Origin: an uncultured Verrucomicrobiae bacterium
GTDB taxonomy: Bacteria; Verrucomicrobiota; Verrucomicrobiia; Chthoniobacterales; Chthoniobacteraceae
Assembly (NCBI GenBank): GCA_963769025.1
Contig: CAVYKI010000009.1
Coordinates: forward strand, 128,001-192,000
Reading direction: 5' to 3'
Length of the DNA stretch: 64,000 nucleotides
Of this stretch, positions 18,921-23,528 are shown one piece after another; position 1 is the first letter of the stretch, and the number at the start of each line of letters is the position of its first letter. The notes beneath the pieces were generated by a model. It was not told the DNA's origin. It worked only from the letters and a program-made list of their open reading frames with translations, and did not search any database. The position numbers and the translations under genes were made by a program.

Positions 18921-19178
18921 GAAATTCCGCGCATGGCGCCCGCCGCTGCGCGACGCTGGAAAGCCCCCTCTGGCAAGGGGGCAATCCTGCCGCGCCGCGT
19001 AACGCGGGCCATCCTGCCCGCGCACCGGCGACCTGGACAGGATTGCCCGTGCACCCGAGACGCGGAGACGATCGCGCACACCGGGGACGCGGACAGGATT
19101 GTCCGCATTACGCAGCGAAGGCTCCGCTTGGGGCGTGTCATCCAGTTTGAACGTGTGGAGTAACGGCAATCGCAGCGT

Positions 19179-19401
19179 GTCCCGGAGGGACGAAGGAAAT
19201 TAGCCGGTGGTGGAGCGAGCGCAGCGAGTGAGAACCACCGGATCCCGTCCAATAATACGATGCGTCCCGGCAGGGACGCGGGAATTCCGGACACGAGTCC
19301 ATTCCCGCCGCCCCCTCCGGGGCGGATGACATGCATTGCGTGGATCCGGTGGTGTTCGCTTCGCTCGACCACCGGCTAATTTCCGCGACGCCTCCGGCGT
19401 C
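19179..19401. repeat. Nested palindromic REP-like element
   Basis: Perfect 17-bp inverted repeat GGAAATTAGCCGGTGGT (19195-19211) / ACCACCGGCTAATTTCC (19368-19384); inner ACCACCGGATCC/GGATCCGGTGGT pair; GTCCCGG(C)AGGGAC hairpins. Confidence 0.8.
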
Positions 19402-19685
19402 ACAAACATGCCCCAAGCATATAAAATCCCCTTGCCTATGCTTCACACCTTCCTGTAATACCGCGCCCGACGCCACAGCTTCCCGGCGTTGGAATGGATG
19501 CCGGGAGCGGGGCTCCCCAATCAACAACCAGCAGGCAACGGACATGCACGGATCGGAGGATATGCAGGTGCGCCACGGCGGAGGTTTCGCCGGAGGGGAA
19601 AGCGTCCCCGGGTGCGCCGGGGATGAAATGCGACGCGGCGGCCCCGATCCGGTGCCCTTCGGAGACAATGAAATCAGCCATGCCC

Positions 19686-19763
19686 GTCCGAAAATAGCCC
19701 GGCACCCGCATCGATGTCCGAAAATAGCCCGGCCGTCGGATCCATGTCCGAAAATAGGCCAGC
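19686..19763. repeat. Three direct repeats with 30-bp period
   Basis: GTCCGAAAATAG(C/G)CC at 19686, 19716 and 19746; the third copy runs into the next palindrome. Confidence 0.8.
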
Positions 19764-19892
19764 ACTTCAGTGCTGGGTCTTCCGGTCCCTGCGGGAATGA
19801 GTCCCGGAGGGACGAAAGAATCCTGCCATCCCTCCGGGACTTGTCCGGATTGTCCTCCTCGGTACCCAGCACTGAATTGCTGGGCAATTTTC
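19750..19892. repeat. REP-doublet-like palindrome, copy 1
   Basis: GAAAATAGGCCAGCACTTCAGTGCTGGG ... GTCCCGGAGGGAC ... CCCAGCACTGAATTGCTGGGCAATTTTC; homologous to 23108-23253. Confidence 0.85.
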
Positions 19893-19927
19893 AGGGTTCT
19901 GCGCCCTGTTGCACGACCTCCTACGGG

Positions 19928-20220
19928 TGCAAAGGTCTCCGCTCAAAGCCGGCCCCGCATCTTGCGCGTGCAACGACCCGCGCCCCAAAGCCGGGCCGGT
20001 TTCCTTTGCGTGCAAAGACCCCCGGCTCAAGCTTGAGCCGCCCCTCTTTGCACCTGCAAGGGGCACCGCGCCCGGGCCCGCAGGCATTTGCAGGTGCAAA
20101 GACCCCCGACTTAAGGTCAAACCGCCCCCCTTTGCATGCAAAGACCCCCGACTTAAAGTCAAACCGCCCCTCTTTGCATGCAAAGACCCATGACTTAAAG
20201 TCAAACCACCCCTCTTTGCA
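19928..20220. repeat. Tandem array of seven ~42-bp units with palindromic edges (TGCAAAG...CTTTGCA)
   Basis: Units start at 19928, 19969, 20011, 20055, 20095, 20137 and 20179; the last three are nearly identical (TGCAAAGACCCCCGACTTAAAGTCAAACCGCCCCTCTTTGCA). Confidence 0.9.
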
Positions 20221-20380
20221 CCGGGATACCCCCGGATTTTCGGCAAAAAATGCCATTTTTCGCCCCTTTCCAGCCCATCGCCCTCCGATCTGCCCGTTTT
20301 CAGCCTTTGGCGGGCACCTCCCGGCATTCCCTCCCGCTTCCCACGCATCCTCACATCCACCCCTGAACCACTGACCCGCC

Positions 20381-21163
20381 ATGCCATTCCGCCAGTTACC
20401 CAGCACGAACGCCACCTACCTGCAGGCCCTCGACGCCGCCCATGCCAAATGGACCGGCACCGCCGCCCCGGACCGCCTCATCAGCCAGGAGCAGTTCGAC
20501 AAATACCTCGACCTCACCCCGCCCGCCGGCGGCGCATTGGGCAGCATCCATTTCCGGTTCAAAAAGGAGACCGGCGAATCCACCGGCGCACTCGCCGCGC
20601 AGACGCCCCTCACCAGCGCGCTCGATACCACCCGCGGCCTGCTCCGCCTCACCATCTCGCATTTCATCCAGACGATGAATAATGCCATCACCCGCGGCGT
20701 CCTCCCGCGCGAGACCCGCACCACCTTCCAGCTCCCGCTGGAGAGCGACCGCGTGCCCGACCTCTTCACCGATGCCGACCTCCTGCTCTGGGCCCAGCAC
20801 ATCGCCGATGGCGAAACCGCCCGCACCGCCGCCGGCGGCACCCCCATCGCCTGGCCCGCCGCCGCCGAAGTCACCGCCCTGCGCGACCAGTTCCGCACCC
20901 AGTCCGCCGCGCAAAGCACCGCCAAGGACGCCACCGACCGCGAGCAGGGCGACGTCGAGCGCCTCCTGCCCGGCGTCGCCGCCGCCATCAAGGACCTCTG
21001 GGACACCATCGAATTCAACCTCCGCCACGAACCCACCACCTCCGGCCTCCGCCGCCGCGCCCGCGAATGGGGCCTGACCTACGCCACCCGCCCCGGCGAA
21101 ACCCCCGACGAAGGAACGCCCCCCACAAACCCCACCCCGCCCGCACCCGGGAATCCGGCGTGA
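20381..21163 (+). CDS. Hypothetical alpha-helical protein (260 aa) downstream of the repeat array
   Basis: Clean ORF with strong third-position C bias; MPFRQLPST...DLWDTIEF...RRRAREWGLTY; Pro-rich tail. Confidence 0.85.
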   Translation: MPFRQLPSTNATYLQALDAAHAKWTGTAAPDRLISQEQFDKYLDLTPPAGGALGSIHFRFKKETGESTGALAAQTPLTSALDTTRGLLRLTISHFIQTMNNAITRGVLPRETRTTFQLPLESDRVPDLFTDADLLLWAQHIADGETARTAAGGTPIAWPAAAEVTALRDQFRTQSAAQSTAKDATDREQGDVERLLPGVAAAIKDLWDTIEFNLRHEPTTSGLRRRAREWGLTYATRPGETPDEGTPPTNPTPPAPGNPA

Positions 21164-21202
21164 CTTTCGGCTAATTCTTGGCATGCCCACTACGCCCTCT
21201 CT

Positions 21203-21745
21203 ATGAAAACCGAAACACCCGCTGAAGAAGAACTGCGTTTGAAGCGTATCAACACCTGGATCGCTGCAATTGGTGCGATTGGAGTGGCCGCCACAATCTG
21301 GTTTGGATTTCGCCGGTTAGCTGTGGAAGCACAAGCGCAGACTAACGCAGTTCAGCAACAGTGGGCGACTCACTTTTACGACGAGAAACTTTCTCTCTAC
21401 GCGAGAGCGACCGAGACGGCAGCCAAGATCGCCGCTCTGAAATCGAAAGAGGCGAAAGACACCGACTTGCAAGGTGCTATTACCGAGTTCCGCATACTCT
21501 TCTGGGGTCCGATGTGTGTCACCGAAGGTCAAGACGTAGAGAAGGCGATGGTGTATTTTGCTGCTGCTCTCGATTCGGCAGCTTCCGGGAAGGACCTCCA
21601 GCAGCTTTCTCTTTTTCTCGCTCACGTTTGCCGCAATGAAGCTCATGAGTTATACGTTCGAGACGGACACGCTGCGTCACACTACGGAACAAACGACACG
21701 ATTCTGGAGCGTATGAAACAGCTCTCGGGTGCTTCTTCTCAATGA
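21203..21745 (+). CDS. Hypothetical protein with a single N-terminal TM helix
   Basis: 180 aa ORF with visibly lower GC than its flanks; hydrophobic WIAAIGAIGVAATIWFGF. Confidence 0.7.
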   Translation: MKTETPAEEELRLKRINTWIAAIGAIGVAATIWFGFRRLAVEAQAQTNAVQQQWATHFYDEKLSLYARATETAAKIAALKSKEAKDTDLQGAITEFRILFWGPMCVTEGQDVEKAMVYFAAALDSAASGKDLQQLSLFLAHVCRNEAHELYVRDGHAASHYGTNDTILERMKQLSGASSQ

Positions 21746-21773
21746 ACCGTGGGCCTACGCGCTATCCAAATTT

Positions 21774-21878
21774 ATGATACCACCAGACCCACCGCCCCCG
21801 CCGCCCCCGCCGCCCCCGCCGCCCCCGCCGACCAATAATCCGGGAACCAAGAGTCCGAACATTCCGCGAACGCGATGA
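21774..21878 (+). CDS. Putative poly-proline micro-ORF (34 aa, MIPPD-P14-TNNPGTKSPNIPRTR)
   Basis: Manual translation; its TGA overlaps the ATG of the next gene (ATGA at 21875-21878); encoded by (CCGCCCCCG)n. Confidence 0.45.
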   Translation: MIPPDPPPPPPPPPPPPPPTNNPGTKSPNIPRTR

Positions 21879-22091
21879 CAAGCAAGGACCTTTGGGAGCA
21901 GTATCAGCATTACACCAATGACCTCACGCAGAACGCGCGCACTCTTGGTTTCGCCGCGGGAGCGATATGCTGGCTCTTCAAGCCCGCTGACGAGGTATCG
22001 TTTCCTCCAGCTATTCTTTGCGCCCTCAGTCTCCTCGTCGTGTTCTTCGTGTGCGACATTCTCCATTATTTCATCGGCGCCCTCGCGCTTA
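21875..22091 (+). pseudogene. Small membrane protein interrupted by IS insertion
   Basis: MTSKDLWEQYQHYT...two TM segments; the reading frame runs into the IS end at 22092. Confidence 0.6.
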
Positions 22092-22881
22092 GAGCGTGTC
22101 ATGCACTTTGGTTGAAAGAAAGGTCTGTACTTTGTAAATACGTCCCGGCATTACGCTTGGGATGGCGCTTAAAACACGAGGAACCAAAACCAATTATGCG
22201 AGCGATGTCAGCGATGAGGAATGGGCGTTCTGCGCGCCGTATCTCACGCTGATGAGAGAAGACGCTGCGCAGCGCGAATACTCGATGCGGGCGATGTTCA
22301 ACGCTGTGCGTTACATGGTGCGGGCGGGATGTCCGTGGCGGATGATTCCCAACGATCTGCCTCCGTGGCCGGCGGTGCATCAGCAGGCGCAGCGATGGAT
22401 CAATGCGGGGTGTTTCGAAGCGATGGCGCACGACCTGCGCAAGATGCTGCGTTTGCTCGCGCAGAAAGCCATGCAACCGACGGCGGTGATCCTCGATGGA
22501 AGAACAATGCAATCGACGCCGGAAAGCGGAGCCCGGGCGGGCTACGACGGATACAAGCGGCGCAAAGGTTCCAAAGTGCACGCCGCAGTGGATACGCTGG
22601 GCAATTTGCTCGCGCTCAAAGTCACCGCGGCCAGTGAACAGGAGCGCGCCCAAGTGGCGGATCTGATCAAGGAAGTGCAGGAGGCAACGGGTGAAAATGT
22701 GGAAGTGGCGTACGTCGATCAGGGCTACACGGGCCAAACGCCAAAAGAGCAGGCGGCCAAACAAGGCGTCGATTTGATCGTGGTGAAGCTCGAAGAAGCC
22801 AAACGCGGATTCGTGCTTCTGCCCAGACGCTGGGTGGTCGAACGCTCGTTCAGCATTGGGGCGCGCTCGCATTCGCTTTGA
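22092..22881 (+). mobile_element. IS5-family insertion sequence, right end missing
   Basis: Putative left end GAGCGTGTCATGCAC preceded by TTA; transposase follows; no matching right inverted repeat seen. Confidence 0.78.
22162..22881 (+). CDS. IS5-family transposase, C-terminally truncated
   Basis: YASDVSDEEW, GCPWRMIPNDLPPW, ILDGRT, GYDGYKRRKGSKVHAAVDTLG, VDQGY, RRWVVERSF, then an abrupt switch to unrelated sequence. Confidence 0.9.
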   Translation: MALKTRGTKTNYASDVSDEEWAFCAPYLTLMREDAAQREYSMRAMFNAVRYMVRAGCPWRMIPNDLPPWPAVHQQAQRWINAGCFEAMAHDLRKMLRLLAQKAMQPTAVILDGRTMQSTPESGARAGYDGYKRRKGSKVHAAVDTLGNLLALKVTAASEQERAQVADLIKEVQEATGENVEVAYVDQGYTGQTPKEQAAKQGVDLIVVKLEEAKRGFVLLPRRWVVERSFSIGARSHSL

Positions 22882-23107
22882 CCTTATCGAGTGCAGCGAA
22901 CCGCACAAGTGATGAGGAGATTCCGAAACCTCAATAACCGCAACGCCTAACCCCTATGAAAGGGGTCAAGATGGAAGTTGGGTGAAGTGAGTAAATGGTT
23001 TGCTTGGGTTTGGCCGGGCGGCGCGTTGCCGGGGGCGGCCGGGTCTGGGTTGGGGGTTGCGTGAGCTTGGGAACGTCTGACTCGCTCGCTTCGCTCGTCT
23101 CGCCCTT

Positions 23108-23253
23108 GAAAATAGCCCAGCACTTCAGTGCTGGGACCGTTGCGAAATGGGAAACGAGTCCCGGAGGGACGGCAGAATGGTTCTTTCGTCCCTGCCGGGA
23201 CTCGCTGTCTGCACACTCTGAAAGACCCAGCACTGAAGTGCTGGGCTATTTTC
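23108..23253. repeat. REP-doublet-like palindrome, copy 2
   Basis: Perfect 28-bp inverted repeat GAAAATAGCCCAGCACTTCAGTGCTGGG (23108-23135) / 23226-23253 enclosing GTCCCGGAGGGAC and GTCCCTGCCGGGAC. Confidence 0.88.
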
Positions 23254-23528
23254 GGAAACTTCAGAGCCGCCTACGCAAACACCGCGCTGATCGGCTTCCC
23301 ATCCGCCGCATGCACGGGACGGGCGTTCGGGGGAAGAGGGAACGAGGAAGATGAGGGGACGTGTCGCAGCGCGATGAGCGCGGGTTTGTGAGGAGGGGCG
23401 CGTGAACCAGTTTGCGAGCGGGGCGATGCGACGGGATGTGCGTGTCGCGTCAGGCGGTTTTCCGCGGTGAAATTGTGGCTTGAGGCGGCACGCGCGCGGG
23501 CGGAGCTTTTGCCAACAACCCCACTGCC

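Follow-up and report, generated by a model that had tools for sequence, protein, structure and literature searches.

Conserved 42-bp tandem arrays ahead of a family of uncharacterized helical protein genes

An array of 42-bp units and its gene

The window (the whole 64,000-nucleotide stretch of DNA analysed here, from an uncultured Verrucomicrobiae bacterium) contains a gene for an all-helical protein, preceded across a short gap by a tandem array of seven ~42-bp units at 19928–20220 (Table 1). Unit boundaries were set by cutting at the TGCA edges, and TRF returned the gene-proximal core with a period of 42, 3.0 copies, 94% matches and a score of 217. Three units, the last ones, are near-identical and differ at 2–3 of 42 positions, three are clearly related and one is placed by position alone. 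For random 42-mers of the window, identity averages 20.3, with the 95th and 99.9th percentiles at 24 and 29; by this measure units 1–3 and 5–7 exceed chance, and unit 4 qualifies through its edges and position only. A first-pass annotation of the sequence had described seven units beginning TGCAA and a polarity along the array, and with this reservation about unit 4 both descriptions hold: gene-proximal units match the reference at 39–42 of 42 positions and distal ones at 23–35.

Table 1 Features of the array region, in window positions
Feature	Positions	Strand	Remarks
Sigma-70-like site	19228–19256		upstream of the array
Sigma-70-like site	19399–19427		upstream of the array
MITE	19744–19892		
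Distal, diverged part of the array	19928–20094	+	units 1–4, each beginning TGCAA
Unit 1	19928–19968	+	41 bp; 28/42 identical to unit 6
Unit 2	19969–20010	+	42 bp; 27/42 identical to unit 6
Unit 3	20011–20054	+	44 bp; 35/42 identical to unit 6
Unit 4	20055–20094	+	40 bp; 23/42 identical to unit 6
Gene-proximal core	20095–20220	+	three 42-bp units, TGCAAAGA-CCCCC-GACTTAAAGTCAAACC-GCCCC-TCTTTGCA; TRF
Unit 5	20095–20136	+	42 bp; 40/42 identical to unit 6
Unit 6	20137–20178	+	42 bp; reference for unit identities (42/42)
Unit 7	20179–20220	+	42 bp; 39/42 identical to unit 6
Gap between array and start codon	20221–20380	+	160 bp, 67.5% C+T (A25 C72 G27 T36); G-poor, C-rich
Inverted repeat at gap start	20221–20235		CCGGG..CCCGG
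Inverted repeat at gap start	20242–20264		GGCAAAAAATG/CATTTTTCGCC
Gene for 260-aa all-helical protein	20381–21163	+	ORF; MPFRQLP...WDTIEF...RRRAREWGLTY, Pro/Thr-rich tail
IS5-family gene	22162–22881		

The units are contiguous, with no unique spacers between them, and each contains an inverted repeat (shuffle-test palindrome P = 0.00 for this array, W9). It had been proposed that each unit can fold as a hairpin. The palindromic edges are indeed present, but the palindromes are local boxes of ~16 bp at the edges and junctions, and in the second copy of the array, on contig C7, the junctions pair better than the two ends of one unit. Junctions of the core form perfect inverted arms of 15 nt, whereas the central box is a perfect 16-bp palindrome in unit 3 only. 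The central CT(T/C)AA(A/G)G motif, previously assigned to the units in general, occurs in loose form in six of the seven. In the 5.3-Mb genome, CTTTGCATGCAAAG is found twice, both times at junctions of the window array, and TGCAAAG-N24-32-CTTTGCA occurs five times, four of them in the window array and one in the C7 array. The repeat is confined to two sites (the window array and C7:32340-32556) and is not scattered genome-wide; REP/BIME extragenic palindromes, which have tens to hundreds of dispersed copies, were rejected on this count. A DNA-level search of 31 related genomes yielded no close orthologue of the window array, its matches being to the neighbouring MITE, and a metagenome scan likewise yielded no close orthologue and returned three distant loci.

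The pyrimidine-rich stretch and the 260-aa frame noted in the first-pass annotation are both as described (Table 1). A consensus promoter and terminator scan of 19000–21400 gave no site within the array or gap (19900–20400), and two sigma-70-like sites lie upstream of the array. Rfam covariance models had no match inside 19928–20380 at E ≤ 1; the sole Rfam matches were sub-threshold ones to Acido-Lenti-1, in the neighbouring MITE. The surroundings are plastic, with this MITE on one side and an IS5-family gene on the other.

Coupling of array and gene across phyla

The protein belongs to an uncharacterized family of 1,102 clusters that spans Verrucomicrobiota, Planctomycetota and Bacteroidota. 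The first-pass annotation had noted a resemblance to a Bacteroidota family beginning MPYRRLP; one family member, P0127, does begin MPYRRLP, and the 74 related loci collected include some from Bacteroidota. Coupling between array and gene was measured at the 49 loci where the match starts within the first 10 residues and at least 630 bp of upstream sequence is available, as the strongest self-similarity lag (12–100 bp) in the interval −630 to −30 relative to the gene. The top lag was 42 at 39 loci, 84 at four, 83 at two and 43 at one, that is, a 42-bp rhythm at 46 of the 49; the remaining three gave 51, 28 and 16. In control regions, lag 42 came out on top at 0 of 49 loci downstream and at 2 of 42 far upstream. 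TRF found an array of period 40–44 at 47 of 67 loci. Absence of arrays ahead of homologues had been named as the outcome that would speak against an association, and what was found is their recurrence. The link between array and gene is real and old, and the data support the view that the two form a conserved pair whose constant is 42 bp.

Units within an array are 70–96% identical and number from 2 to 14, whereas unit sequences are unrelated between loci; since the sequences differ wholly, selection acts on the spacing. Each 42-bp unit consists of two 21-bp halves of alternating content, which gives a 21-bp sub-period. At many loci the array ends 22–72 bp ahead of the start codon, so that arrays abut or overlap the promoter region. 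Close relatives can differ by a whole unit, as at two loci with identical flanks that have five units (L123) and four (L027). Within the genome of the window, a paralogue at C12:518775-519491 (33% identity, E = 1e-20) is accompanied by a 42-bp array of its own, with 8.6 copies of an unrelated unit. The 67 loci share no conserved neighbouring gene, and no recombinase or transposase, cas-like or regulator gene is kept nearby; the upstream ORFs at 61 loci fall into unrelated families, and the module sits amid unrelated housekeeping genes. A search for a hidden small reader ORF in the module gave none that is conserved except translations of the repeats themselves. The same genome also carries many further 21- and 42-bp arrays adjoining unrelated genes, one 21-bp array preceding an FN3 gene and then a collagen-like gene, and the protein may therefore be cargo rather than partner.

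Searches with the 260-aa protein gave little by which to name it. Nothing meaningful was returned by Pfam, NCBIfam, PADLOC or PHROGs, with no recognized nucleic-acid-binding domain; Foldseek against PDB and BFVD gave no match at E ≤ 0.001, and a PDB sequence search gave none. A VIA-align wide search peaked at Z = 8.8, with every match a generic long-helix protein that falls inside the background stated for helical models, and the ESM Atlas returned unnamed clusters only. With hhalign, a weak test here because single sequences were compared, no similarity was seen to three other array-linked proteins of the same genome. Family lengths reach 472 aa in an exhaustive search, and a search for fused forms of 472–2,000 aa found none. 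The proteins are acidic, with a median pI of 5.5 over the first 240 residues and a pI below 7 in 81% of 197 members, and C-terminal beta-sandwich domains were found in 10 of the 18 longer members scanned, CarboxypepD_reg domains of this kind being frequent at the C termini of relatives. The module is patchy in the genus (11 of 30 genomes), with up to seven matches in one genome. Our literature search found no published description of such arrays or of the protein family.

A phased DNA platform and its alternatives

We compared three orthologous arrays whose proteins are 73–79% identical. They align without gaps, have in common four units and a terminal half box in positional orthology, and contain invariant GTGCA..CAC blocks starting at columns 18, 60, 102, 144 and 186, so that the palindromic box repeats exactly every 42 bp. 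One species has CGTGCATGCACG in all four boxes and the other two species have TGTGCATGCACA, whereas the spacers keep their position-by-position orthology. A co-evolving, sequence-specific reader would predict just this: boxes that shift in concert while spacers do not. Across arrays, the best palindrome per unit has 6.11 pairs versus 4.76 in shuffles, with P ≤ 0.05 in 12 of 47 arrays; palindromes are not universal, however, P exceeding 0.5 in another 12 of the 47, including the array of the paralogue. A4+/T4+ tracts occur in 25 of 47 units versus 8.2 ± 2.4 in shuffles (maximum 15 in 500), and these tracts recur in phase.

In B-form DNA, 42 bp corresponds to 4 × 10.5 bp, that is, four helical turns. 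A spacing held at 42 ± 1 despite sequence turnover fits helical phasing. The reading that we favour, at about even confidence, is that the array is a helically phased platform of double-stranded DNA, four turns per unit, that controls the downstream gene. Each 42 bp (two 21-bp half-units) would offer one recognition box, and because 42 bp is four turns, all boxes would lie on the same face of the helix, directly upstream of or over the promoter region. A sequence-specific, probably dimeric protein would occupy the boxes cooperatively; bound protein and phased A/T tracts would together produce a bent nucleoprotein scaffold that sets downstream transcription, and gain or loss of whole units would alter the dose while keeping the phase. 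We infer protein binding, its regulation of transcription and the identity of the reader. An unlinked regulator is a tentative candidate for that reader; the encoded 260-aa protein itself is a more doubtful one. As a counterpoint to the latter, the protein has an acidic pI and no match to a DNA-binding family or fold, and the CarboxypepD_reg beta-sandwich C termini of its relatives are unusual for a DNA-binding regulator. A pure double-strand element, for its part, does not require the gene-co-oriented strand asymmetry of the arrays, which would also suit a transcribed leader.

Several other explanations of the repeats themselves were rejected. A coding repeat (42 bp being 14 codons) is at odds with the five of 47 arrays that lack an open frame and with the existence of 40-, 41- and 43-bp units, and an open frame in the other 42 arrays follows from chance expectation for a period divisible by 3. 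A sigma-54 promoter with enhancer-binding sites finds no acceptable −24/−12 match in the gaps of 38 loci, and the Bacteroidota housekeeping −7 box (TAnnTTTG) is missing from the coding strand of the gap at 18 of 21 Bacteroidota loci.

The first-pass annotation had offered two mechanisms, a phased binding platform or a processed, structured RNA array, and of these the platform fits better. In the RNA version, transcription would turn the array into the 5′ leader of the gene or into a separate transcript, and hairpins with C-rich linkers would function as RNA. They might, for instance, be bound by the encoded protein (in an RNP or in autoregulation of translation) or form a Rho/attenuation leader. 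Consistent with this, 29 of 37 arrays (mean skew −0.22) and 34 of 37 gaps (−0.36) have few G residues on the coding strand, an asymmetry that is co-oriented with the gene and spans the array to the start codon. Several arrays lie so close to the ATG (22–72 bp) that scant room is left for an intervening promoter, UUCG-type box centres occur on the coding strand in some arrays (L021; C6:467109), the palindromic edges of the window units show compensatory differences among copies, and the window array has the two sigma-70-like sites ahead of it. By contrast, tripled units folded as RNA show no consistent enrichment of structure across arrays: mean z-scores relative to shuffled units are modest and do not differ between strands (−1.46 and −1.26; Wilcoxon P = 0.33), and only 17 and 15 of the 47 arrays, respectively, reach z < −2. 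A strand call from G-U pairs was rejected, because the opposite strand, although the more stable in raw terms in 38 of 47 arrays, loses this advantage against composition-matched shuffles, which makes it a composition effect. Moreover, the array has no Rfam match and no terminator-like site at its ends, the encoded protein is acidic, and in one Verrucomicrobial clade a promoter-like TTGACG-N15-TAGCAGT block is conserved between array and gene. Single-stranded RNA also gives no cause for an exact spacing of 42 in three phyla or for the 21-bp companions elsewhere, whereas one spacing strictly kept across phyla suits the geometry of a double helix. For these reasons, chiefly the fold scores and the spacing, we prefer the platform and consider an RNA function unlikely.

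Whole-unit differences between close relatives and copy numbers of 2 to 14 could instead mean that the array is a variable-number tandem repeat without a dedicated binder, which tunes or switches expression through the distance or curvature between an upstream element and the promoter and tolerates only whole-turn periods. Enriched, in-phase A/T tracts and the lack of universal palindromes would agree with such a dial, as would the reported tendency, in Planctomycetota populations, of deletions outside coding sequence to fall at intergenic tandem repeats (PMC9426551). However, the four units and terminal half box shared by three species indicate stability there rather than hypervariability, the boxes show the strongest conservation and change together, as would be expected of sequence recognition, and tolerance alone leaves the presence of arrays at 46 of 49 homologues unexplained; we regard this explanation as distinctly unlikely. 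Very improbable is a maintenance role, in which a small mobile or once extrachromosomal module would use the array as its iteron- or centromere-like site and the protein as a Rep- or ParB-like partner. The tandem, phased form beside one gene recalls iterons and partition sites, and the module has no conserved neighbours, is patchy in its genus and crosses phyla, but searches of 72,556 plasmids and 50,697 phages and an IMG/VR scan yielded no relative, no Rep, ParA/ParM or ParB family matched, no recombinase or transposase is conserved alongside, and beta-sandwich C termini are ill-suited to Rep- or ParB-like proteins. Scarcely credible is a neutral or selfish minisatellite that does nothing for the gene: slippage does generate tandem repeats, and the region is plastic (Table 1), yet one period before one gene family at 46 of 49 loci across phyla, with controls lacking it, contradicts this reading.

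Taken together, conserved 42-bp arrays before this gene family point to an undescribed control cassette. In a family of more than 1,000 sequence clusters and at least three phyla, a non-coding array of one exact spacing is kept before the gene, and protein and array are both nameless. If the array is a phased binding platform, it would be an unusually long, strictly metered bacterial control element, with up to 14 four-turn sites, and a ready model of how proteins bind cooperatively to one face of DNA, how DNA is bent and how repeat number tunes dosage. With the 21-bp arrays of the same genome, it suggests that Bacteroidota, Verrucomicrobiota and Planctomycetota have a general regulatory design which current annotation ignores. 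A further, rather doubtful proposal is that array and gene form a self-contained, portable cassette of an undescribed kind, in which the helical protein or its assembly would recognize its own 42-bp-phased array, as one branch of a wider, unrecognized class of 21/42-bp phased-repeat cassettes governing orphan 'helical plus beta-sandwich' genes in these and neighbouring phyla. A private box sequence for each paralogue would then provide each cassette with its own control or anchoring system wherever it lands. Because the module is present in the cultured Haloferula sargassicola NBRC 104335 (L001), these ideas are directly testable.

Comparison with known repeat systems

The first-pass annotation had seen no fit to CRISPR or TIGR-Tas, and the results support this. 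For CRISPR–Cas, the contiguous units lack unique spacers, and Cas1 (PF01867) was not found in the genome of the window, whereas control genomes matched. TIGR-Tas is closer in layout: it, too, has a tandem array upstream of the gene for a single small coiled-coil-containing protein, with units that run from a palindromic edge through one variable stretch and a central element to another variable stretch. Its own features are unique dual spacers flanked by box C/D, 36-nt RNAs and a Nop-domain Tas protein. Here, by contrast, dual unique spacers were rejected, as units are 70–96% identical within arrays and the inter-box stretches, the would-be spacers, are positionally conserved between orthologous species, and the period is 42 rather than 36. 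Pfam Nop had no match in the 260-aa protein or in 22 family members, and PF01798 was not found in the genome (83% complete). Nop, TasR and snoRNP chains are absent among the fold matches of the protein, a comparison that a remote fold could escape.

Plasmid iterons (P1, F, R6K, pSC101 and pPS10) are 17–22 bp long with a period of ~22 bp, lie on plasmids or phages and are bound by Rep proteins with winged-helix domains. Like them, the arrays are direct tandem repeats by a single gene, phased by whole turns (period 42, 21-bp sub-period), so that bound proteins would share one face, and their sequence is specific to each replicon or locus while the spacing is kept. Unlike them, they have a period of 42 and a chromosomal location, without a plasmid or phage relative or a Rep family match. 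Partition centromeres come nearer in unit length: sopC of F has 12 units of 43 bp, and SopB binds the inverted repeat that each of them contains; there are also parC of R1 and of pSK41, the parC array doubling as operator. These arrays adjoin the gene of their binder, and an inverted repeat per unit is likewise found in the window array and, in part, family-wide (12 of 47 arrays at P ≤ 0.05). The arrays here nevertheless occur without ParA/ParM/ParB-type genes and in multiple copies on chromosomes; the fold searches, which gave nothing informative, showed no match of the protein to centromere-binding folds. The remaining parallel is with response-regulator sites, such as the OmpR and PhoB boxes of ~21–22 bp and the 9 + 12 bp of LytTR, for which known cases have two to four sites. 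Although the arrays here reach 14 units and have no linked regulator gene, they share with these sites the 21-bp sub-period, a place directly ahead of the promoter and, as predicted here, cooperative binding on one face of the DNA.

The array and its recurrence upstream of family genes

The source genome has a G+C content of 64%, and the window corresponds to C9:128001-192000. The array under study consists of seven head-to-tail units, every one opening with TGCAA. Unit borders were set at the TGCA edges, giving lengths of 41, 42, 44, 40, 42, 42 and 42 bp for units 1–7, and identity to unit 6 was scored over 42 positions, giving 28, 27, 35, 23, 40, 42 and 39 matches, respectively. Because random 42-mers from the window match at a mean of 20.3 positions (95th percentile, 24; 99.9th percentile, 29), six of the seven units are clearly related, whereas unit 4 is placed by its edges and position only. 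For the last three units, TRF reports a period of 42 with 3.0 copies, 94% matches and a score of 217. The ~42-bp tandem array described in the first-pass annotation is thus confirmed, with its count of seven secure for six units, and the polarity claimed for it holds: similarity is greatest among the units nearest the gene, which are the youngest. The pyrimidine-rich stretch reported between array and open reading frame (ORF) is also borne out (160 bp; C+T, 67.5%; G, 27/160).

Each unit runs from an edge, TGCAAAGA, through CCCCC to a centre, GACTTAAAGTCAAACC, and through GCCCC to the other edge, TCTTTGCA; in unit 3 the centre is a perfect 16-bp palindrome, GGCTCAAGCTTGAGCC. Two ~16-bp palindromic boxes thus alternate at 21-bp steps, with C-rich linkers between them.

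A word-indexed search returned 59 relatives of the encoded protein at E ≤ 0.001, every named one 'hypothetical', and an exhaustive search returned 1102 cluster representatives. The single paralogue in the source genome (33% identity, E 1e-20; BLAST and HMM search) lies 62 bp downstream of its own 42-bp array, which has 8.6 copies of an unrelated unit. Species-representative genomes yielded 74 loci in Verrucomicrobiota, Planctomycetota (Pirellulaceae, Schlesneria) and Bacteroidota; nine matching C-terminal fragments only (L063, L067–L074) were left out and the two loci of the source genome were added, giving 67. In 47 of these, TRF found an array of period 40–44 within 1200 bp upstream of the gene. 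For a threshold-free test, the lag of the top self-match was taken in a 126-bp window across −630 to −30 at the 49 loci with a complete N-terminus and sufficient upstream DNA. The top lag was 42 in 39 loci, 84 in four, 83 in two and 43 in one, the remaining three giving 51, 28 and 16. Arrays thus do recur upstream of homologues, with a 42-bp rhythm in 46/49 loci; 42 came top in 0/49 controls downstream of the gene and 2/42 far upstream. Two of three additional metagenome loci have the rhythm; the third, a 24%-identical relative, lacks it. The array is real and its association with the gene is robust, and between most loci the unit sequences are unrelated.

Genomic setting and the encoded protein

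The module (array, gap and gene) stands alone. Clustering every ORF ≥70 aa across the 67 loci recovered just the family itself (67 loci) and its internal antisense shadow ORFs; flanking gene families are shared by four loci at most, and no hidden conserved small ORF was found within the module. The longest ORF upstream, compared across 61 loci, belongs to unrelated families with housekeeping or catabolic roles (for example amylase, MatE, EngA, valyl-tRNA synthetase and aldehyde dehydrogenase). The gene is patchy in the genus, with a match in 11/30 genomes and a maximum of seven per genome, and no relatives were found in IMG/VR or in phage and plasmid collections.

Coordinates of the array, its surroundings and related features (window positions unless a contig is named)
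Feature	Location	Details
Short array, upstream of MITE	19015-19106	29 bp x 3.2
Short array, upstream of MITE	19686-19765	30 bp x 2.7, GTCCGAAAATAGCCCGGCAC...
MITE-like element, ~150 bp	19744-19892 and 23095-23270	terminal CCAGCACT..AGTGCTGG hairpins
Array under study	19928-20220	seven units
Family ORF	20381-21163	260 aa
Orphan ORF behind family gene	21203-21745	180 aa, N-terminal hydrophobic helix
Second orphan ORF behind family gene	21875-22252	125 aa
IS4/IS5-family transposase ORF	22162-22881	DUF4096 + DDE_Tnp_1; 1 kb downstream of module
Paralogue	C12:518775-519491	
Second homologous array (L091)	C7:32340-32556	five units
Array before FN3-domain ORF, then collagen-like ORF	C2:337633-337899	
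Array	C9:1126605-1127085	21 bp x 22.9, 96%
Array	C3:868806-869192	42 bp x 9.2
Further 21-/42-bp arrays	C9:210326-210705, C10:337034-337400, C13:22037-22428	
Further 21-/42-bp arrays	C9:552487-552906, C9:1246839-1247204	
Conserved TTGACG block	about 65-100 nt before ATG	L006, L008, L009, L013, L020, L023

The transposase ORF together with the MITEs marks 19000-23400 as a plastic region. MITE copies stand before both the window array and the array on C7; the element is abundant in the genus (many copies in 15/30 related genomes), and its hairpins match Rfam Acido-Lenti-1 below threshold (best, 31.8 bits; gathering score, 37). The 30-bp array is reminiscent of GACGGAAAATGCC, the core of the array before the paralogue. 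The 180-aa ORF has a weak Rz-like spanin PHROG match (E 9e-4). The last 55 residues of the 125-aa ORF are repeated at four other genome sites with 40–60% identity, which suggests another small repeated element.

The first-pass annotation had raised dispersal of the repeat independently of the gene. Within the 5.3 Mb genome, CTTTGCATGCAAAG occurs only twice, both times at array junctions in the window, and the edge-to-edge pattern five times, four in the window array and one at C7:32515. The repeat is thus confined to two places, one of which, the C7 array, has no family gene behind it (BLAST match C7:32386-32558, 75% identity over 173 bp). Its edge boxes are changed (TGCGGC..GCCGCA) yet palindromic, and a PEP-CTERM-type HpiC1-like ORF begins ~380 bp downstream. 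This orphan may have been left behind by a lost module, or it may offer a second target to the putative reader of the window array, a sequence-specific protein recognising the boxes.

Periods 21 (24 TRF rows of ≥2.5 copies) and 42 (14 rows) outnumber every other period above 12 in the genome. The arrays inspected are mostly intergenic and adjoin genes for an FN3-domain protein followed by a collagen-like protein, other orphan proteins and a prepilin peptidase. One unit (AACTGGATCGTTCAGTCGCGG-like) is common to three of the 21-bp arrays, and collagen-like ORFs beginning MPYDPSLP/MPYNPALP lie 1–2 kb from four arrays. The 42-bp array may be seen as a double-unit version of a broader design, and the case for this protein as its necessary partner is weaker for it.

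The 260-aa protein has no match in Pfam, NCBIfam, PHROGs or PADLOC. Its AlphaFold2 model (22 sequences) is confident and all-helical (pLDDT 91, pTM 0.75), with two helices of ~50 residues each and the invariant N-terminus (M1 P2 R4 P7) bridged to an invariant C-terminal motif (R224 R225 R228 W230 G231 Y234); fold searches with it returned generic long-helix proteins only, at background scores. The family is acidic (residues 1–240, median pI 5.5; pI below 7 in 81% of 197 members) despite its conserved arginine cluster. Ten of 18 longer members scanned end in one to three CarboxypepD_reg beta-sandwich domains, which follow a Pro-rich linker like the one ending the window's protein, and no signal peptide was seen among the family sequences inspected. 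The protein seems closer to a structural or scaffold protein than to a classical regulator. Its charge and its relatives' domain make-up disfavour it as the array reader, a role that we consider doubtful overall.

A possible DNA platform or RNA leader

Our preferred reading, to which we give an even chance of being right, is that the array may serve as a helically phased DNA control platform. The most telling case for the DNA-or-RNA question comes from the window's genus, where three arrays are orthologous (proteins 73–79% identical) and align gap-free across the array with invariant blocks spaced exactly 42 columns. All four boxes are CGTGCATGCACG in one species and TGTGCATGCACA in the other two, and the inter-box stretches diverge position by position. 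This change in concert would be best explained by a sequence-specific reader with a shifted preference; gene conversion fits poorly because the spacers would have been homogenised too, and independent hairpins fit poorly because they need not share the same stem. Palindromes are enriched (6.11 versus 4.76 pairs; p ≤ 0.05 in 12/47 arrays) but absent from a quarter of arrays. A4+/T4+ tracts are strongly enriched (25/47 units versus 8.2±2.4 in shuffles); repeated every four turns, such tracts would sum to a planar bend.

A transcribed or structured RNA leader is a rather unlikely reading. Strand bias co-oriented with the gene opposes a purely double-stranded element: G-C skew is −0.22 in arrays (29/37 negative), −0.36 in gaps (34/37) and −0.04 further upstream. 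Raw folding energy is better on the strand opposite the gene in 38/47 arrays, an advantage attributable to composition, and fold z-scores against shuffled units are modest, with no difference between strands (−1.46 and −1.26; z < −2 in 17/47 and 15/47). The arrays are not coding and have no Rfam match. Motif searches did not locate the promoters. In one Verrucomicrobial clade a conserved block, TTGACG-N15-TA(G/T)CA(G/A)T, lies past the array and ahead of the gene and is a candidate promoter. Immediately upstream of the start codon (~50 nt), family loci of all three phyla are strikingly rich in A and C and poor in G (G, 14.8% over gaps), a Shine-Dalgarno-like run is absent before the ATG in most family loci, and family genes start ATGCC.

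That the array is a copy-number dial without a binder is improbable, set beside the concerted box change. Copy numbers do range from 2 to 14, and two loci differ by a whole unit (L027, four; L123, five), consistent with PMC9426551, which reports that non-coding deletions in lake Planctomycetota are frequently in intergenic tandem repeats. A maintenance element, for which phased sites beside one gene might speak, is very unlikely at a chromosomal locus, and neutral DNA is scarcely credible given the recurrent rhythm.

Comparison with known systems

The locus does not fit CRISPR, in line with the first-pass annotation, having neither unique spacers nor cas genes. TIGR arrays, as described in PMC12045711 and a bioRxiv follow-up, have unique dual spacers and a 36-nt unit, and the locus departs from TIGR-Tas in lacking such spacers and in unit length. 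No Nop domain was found by Pfam in the protein, 22 family members or the genome itself (83% complete), and full-text literature searches turned up no account of either the arrays or the protein family. Nearest in form are iterons and partition centromeres, with phased tandem sites beside one gene; the sopC unit is 43 bp. Unlike these, the window locus is chromosomal and without Rep or Par families. Phased response-regulator sites have the 21-bp rhythm in common with the array, but come in twos to fours.
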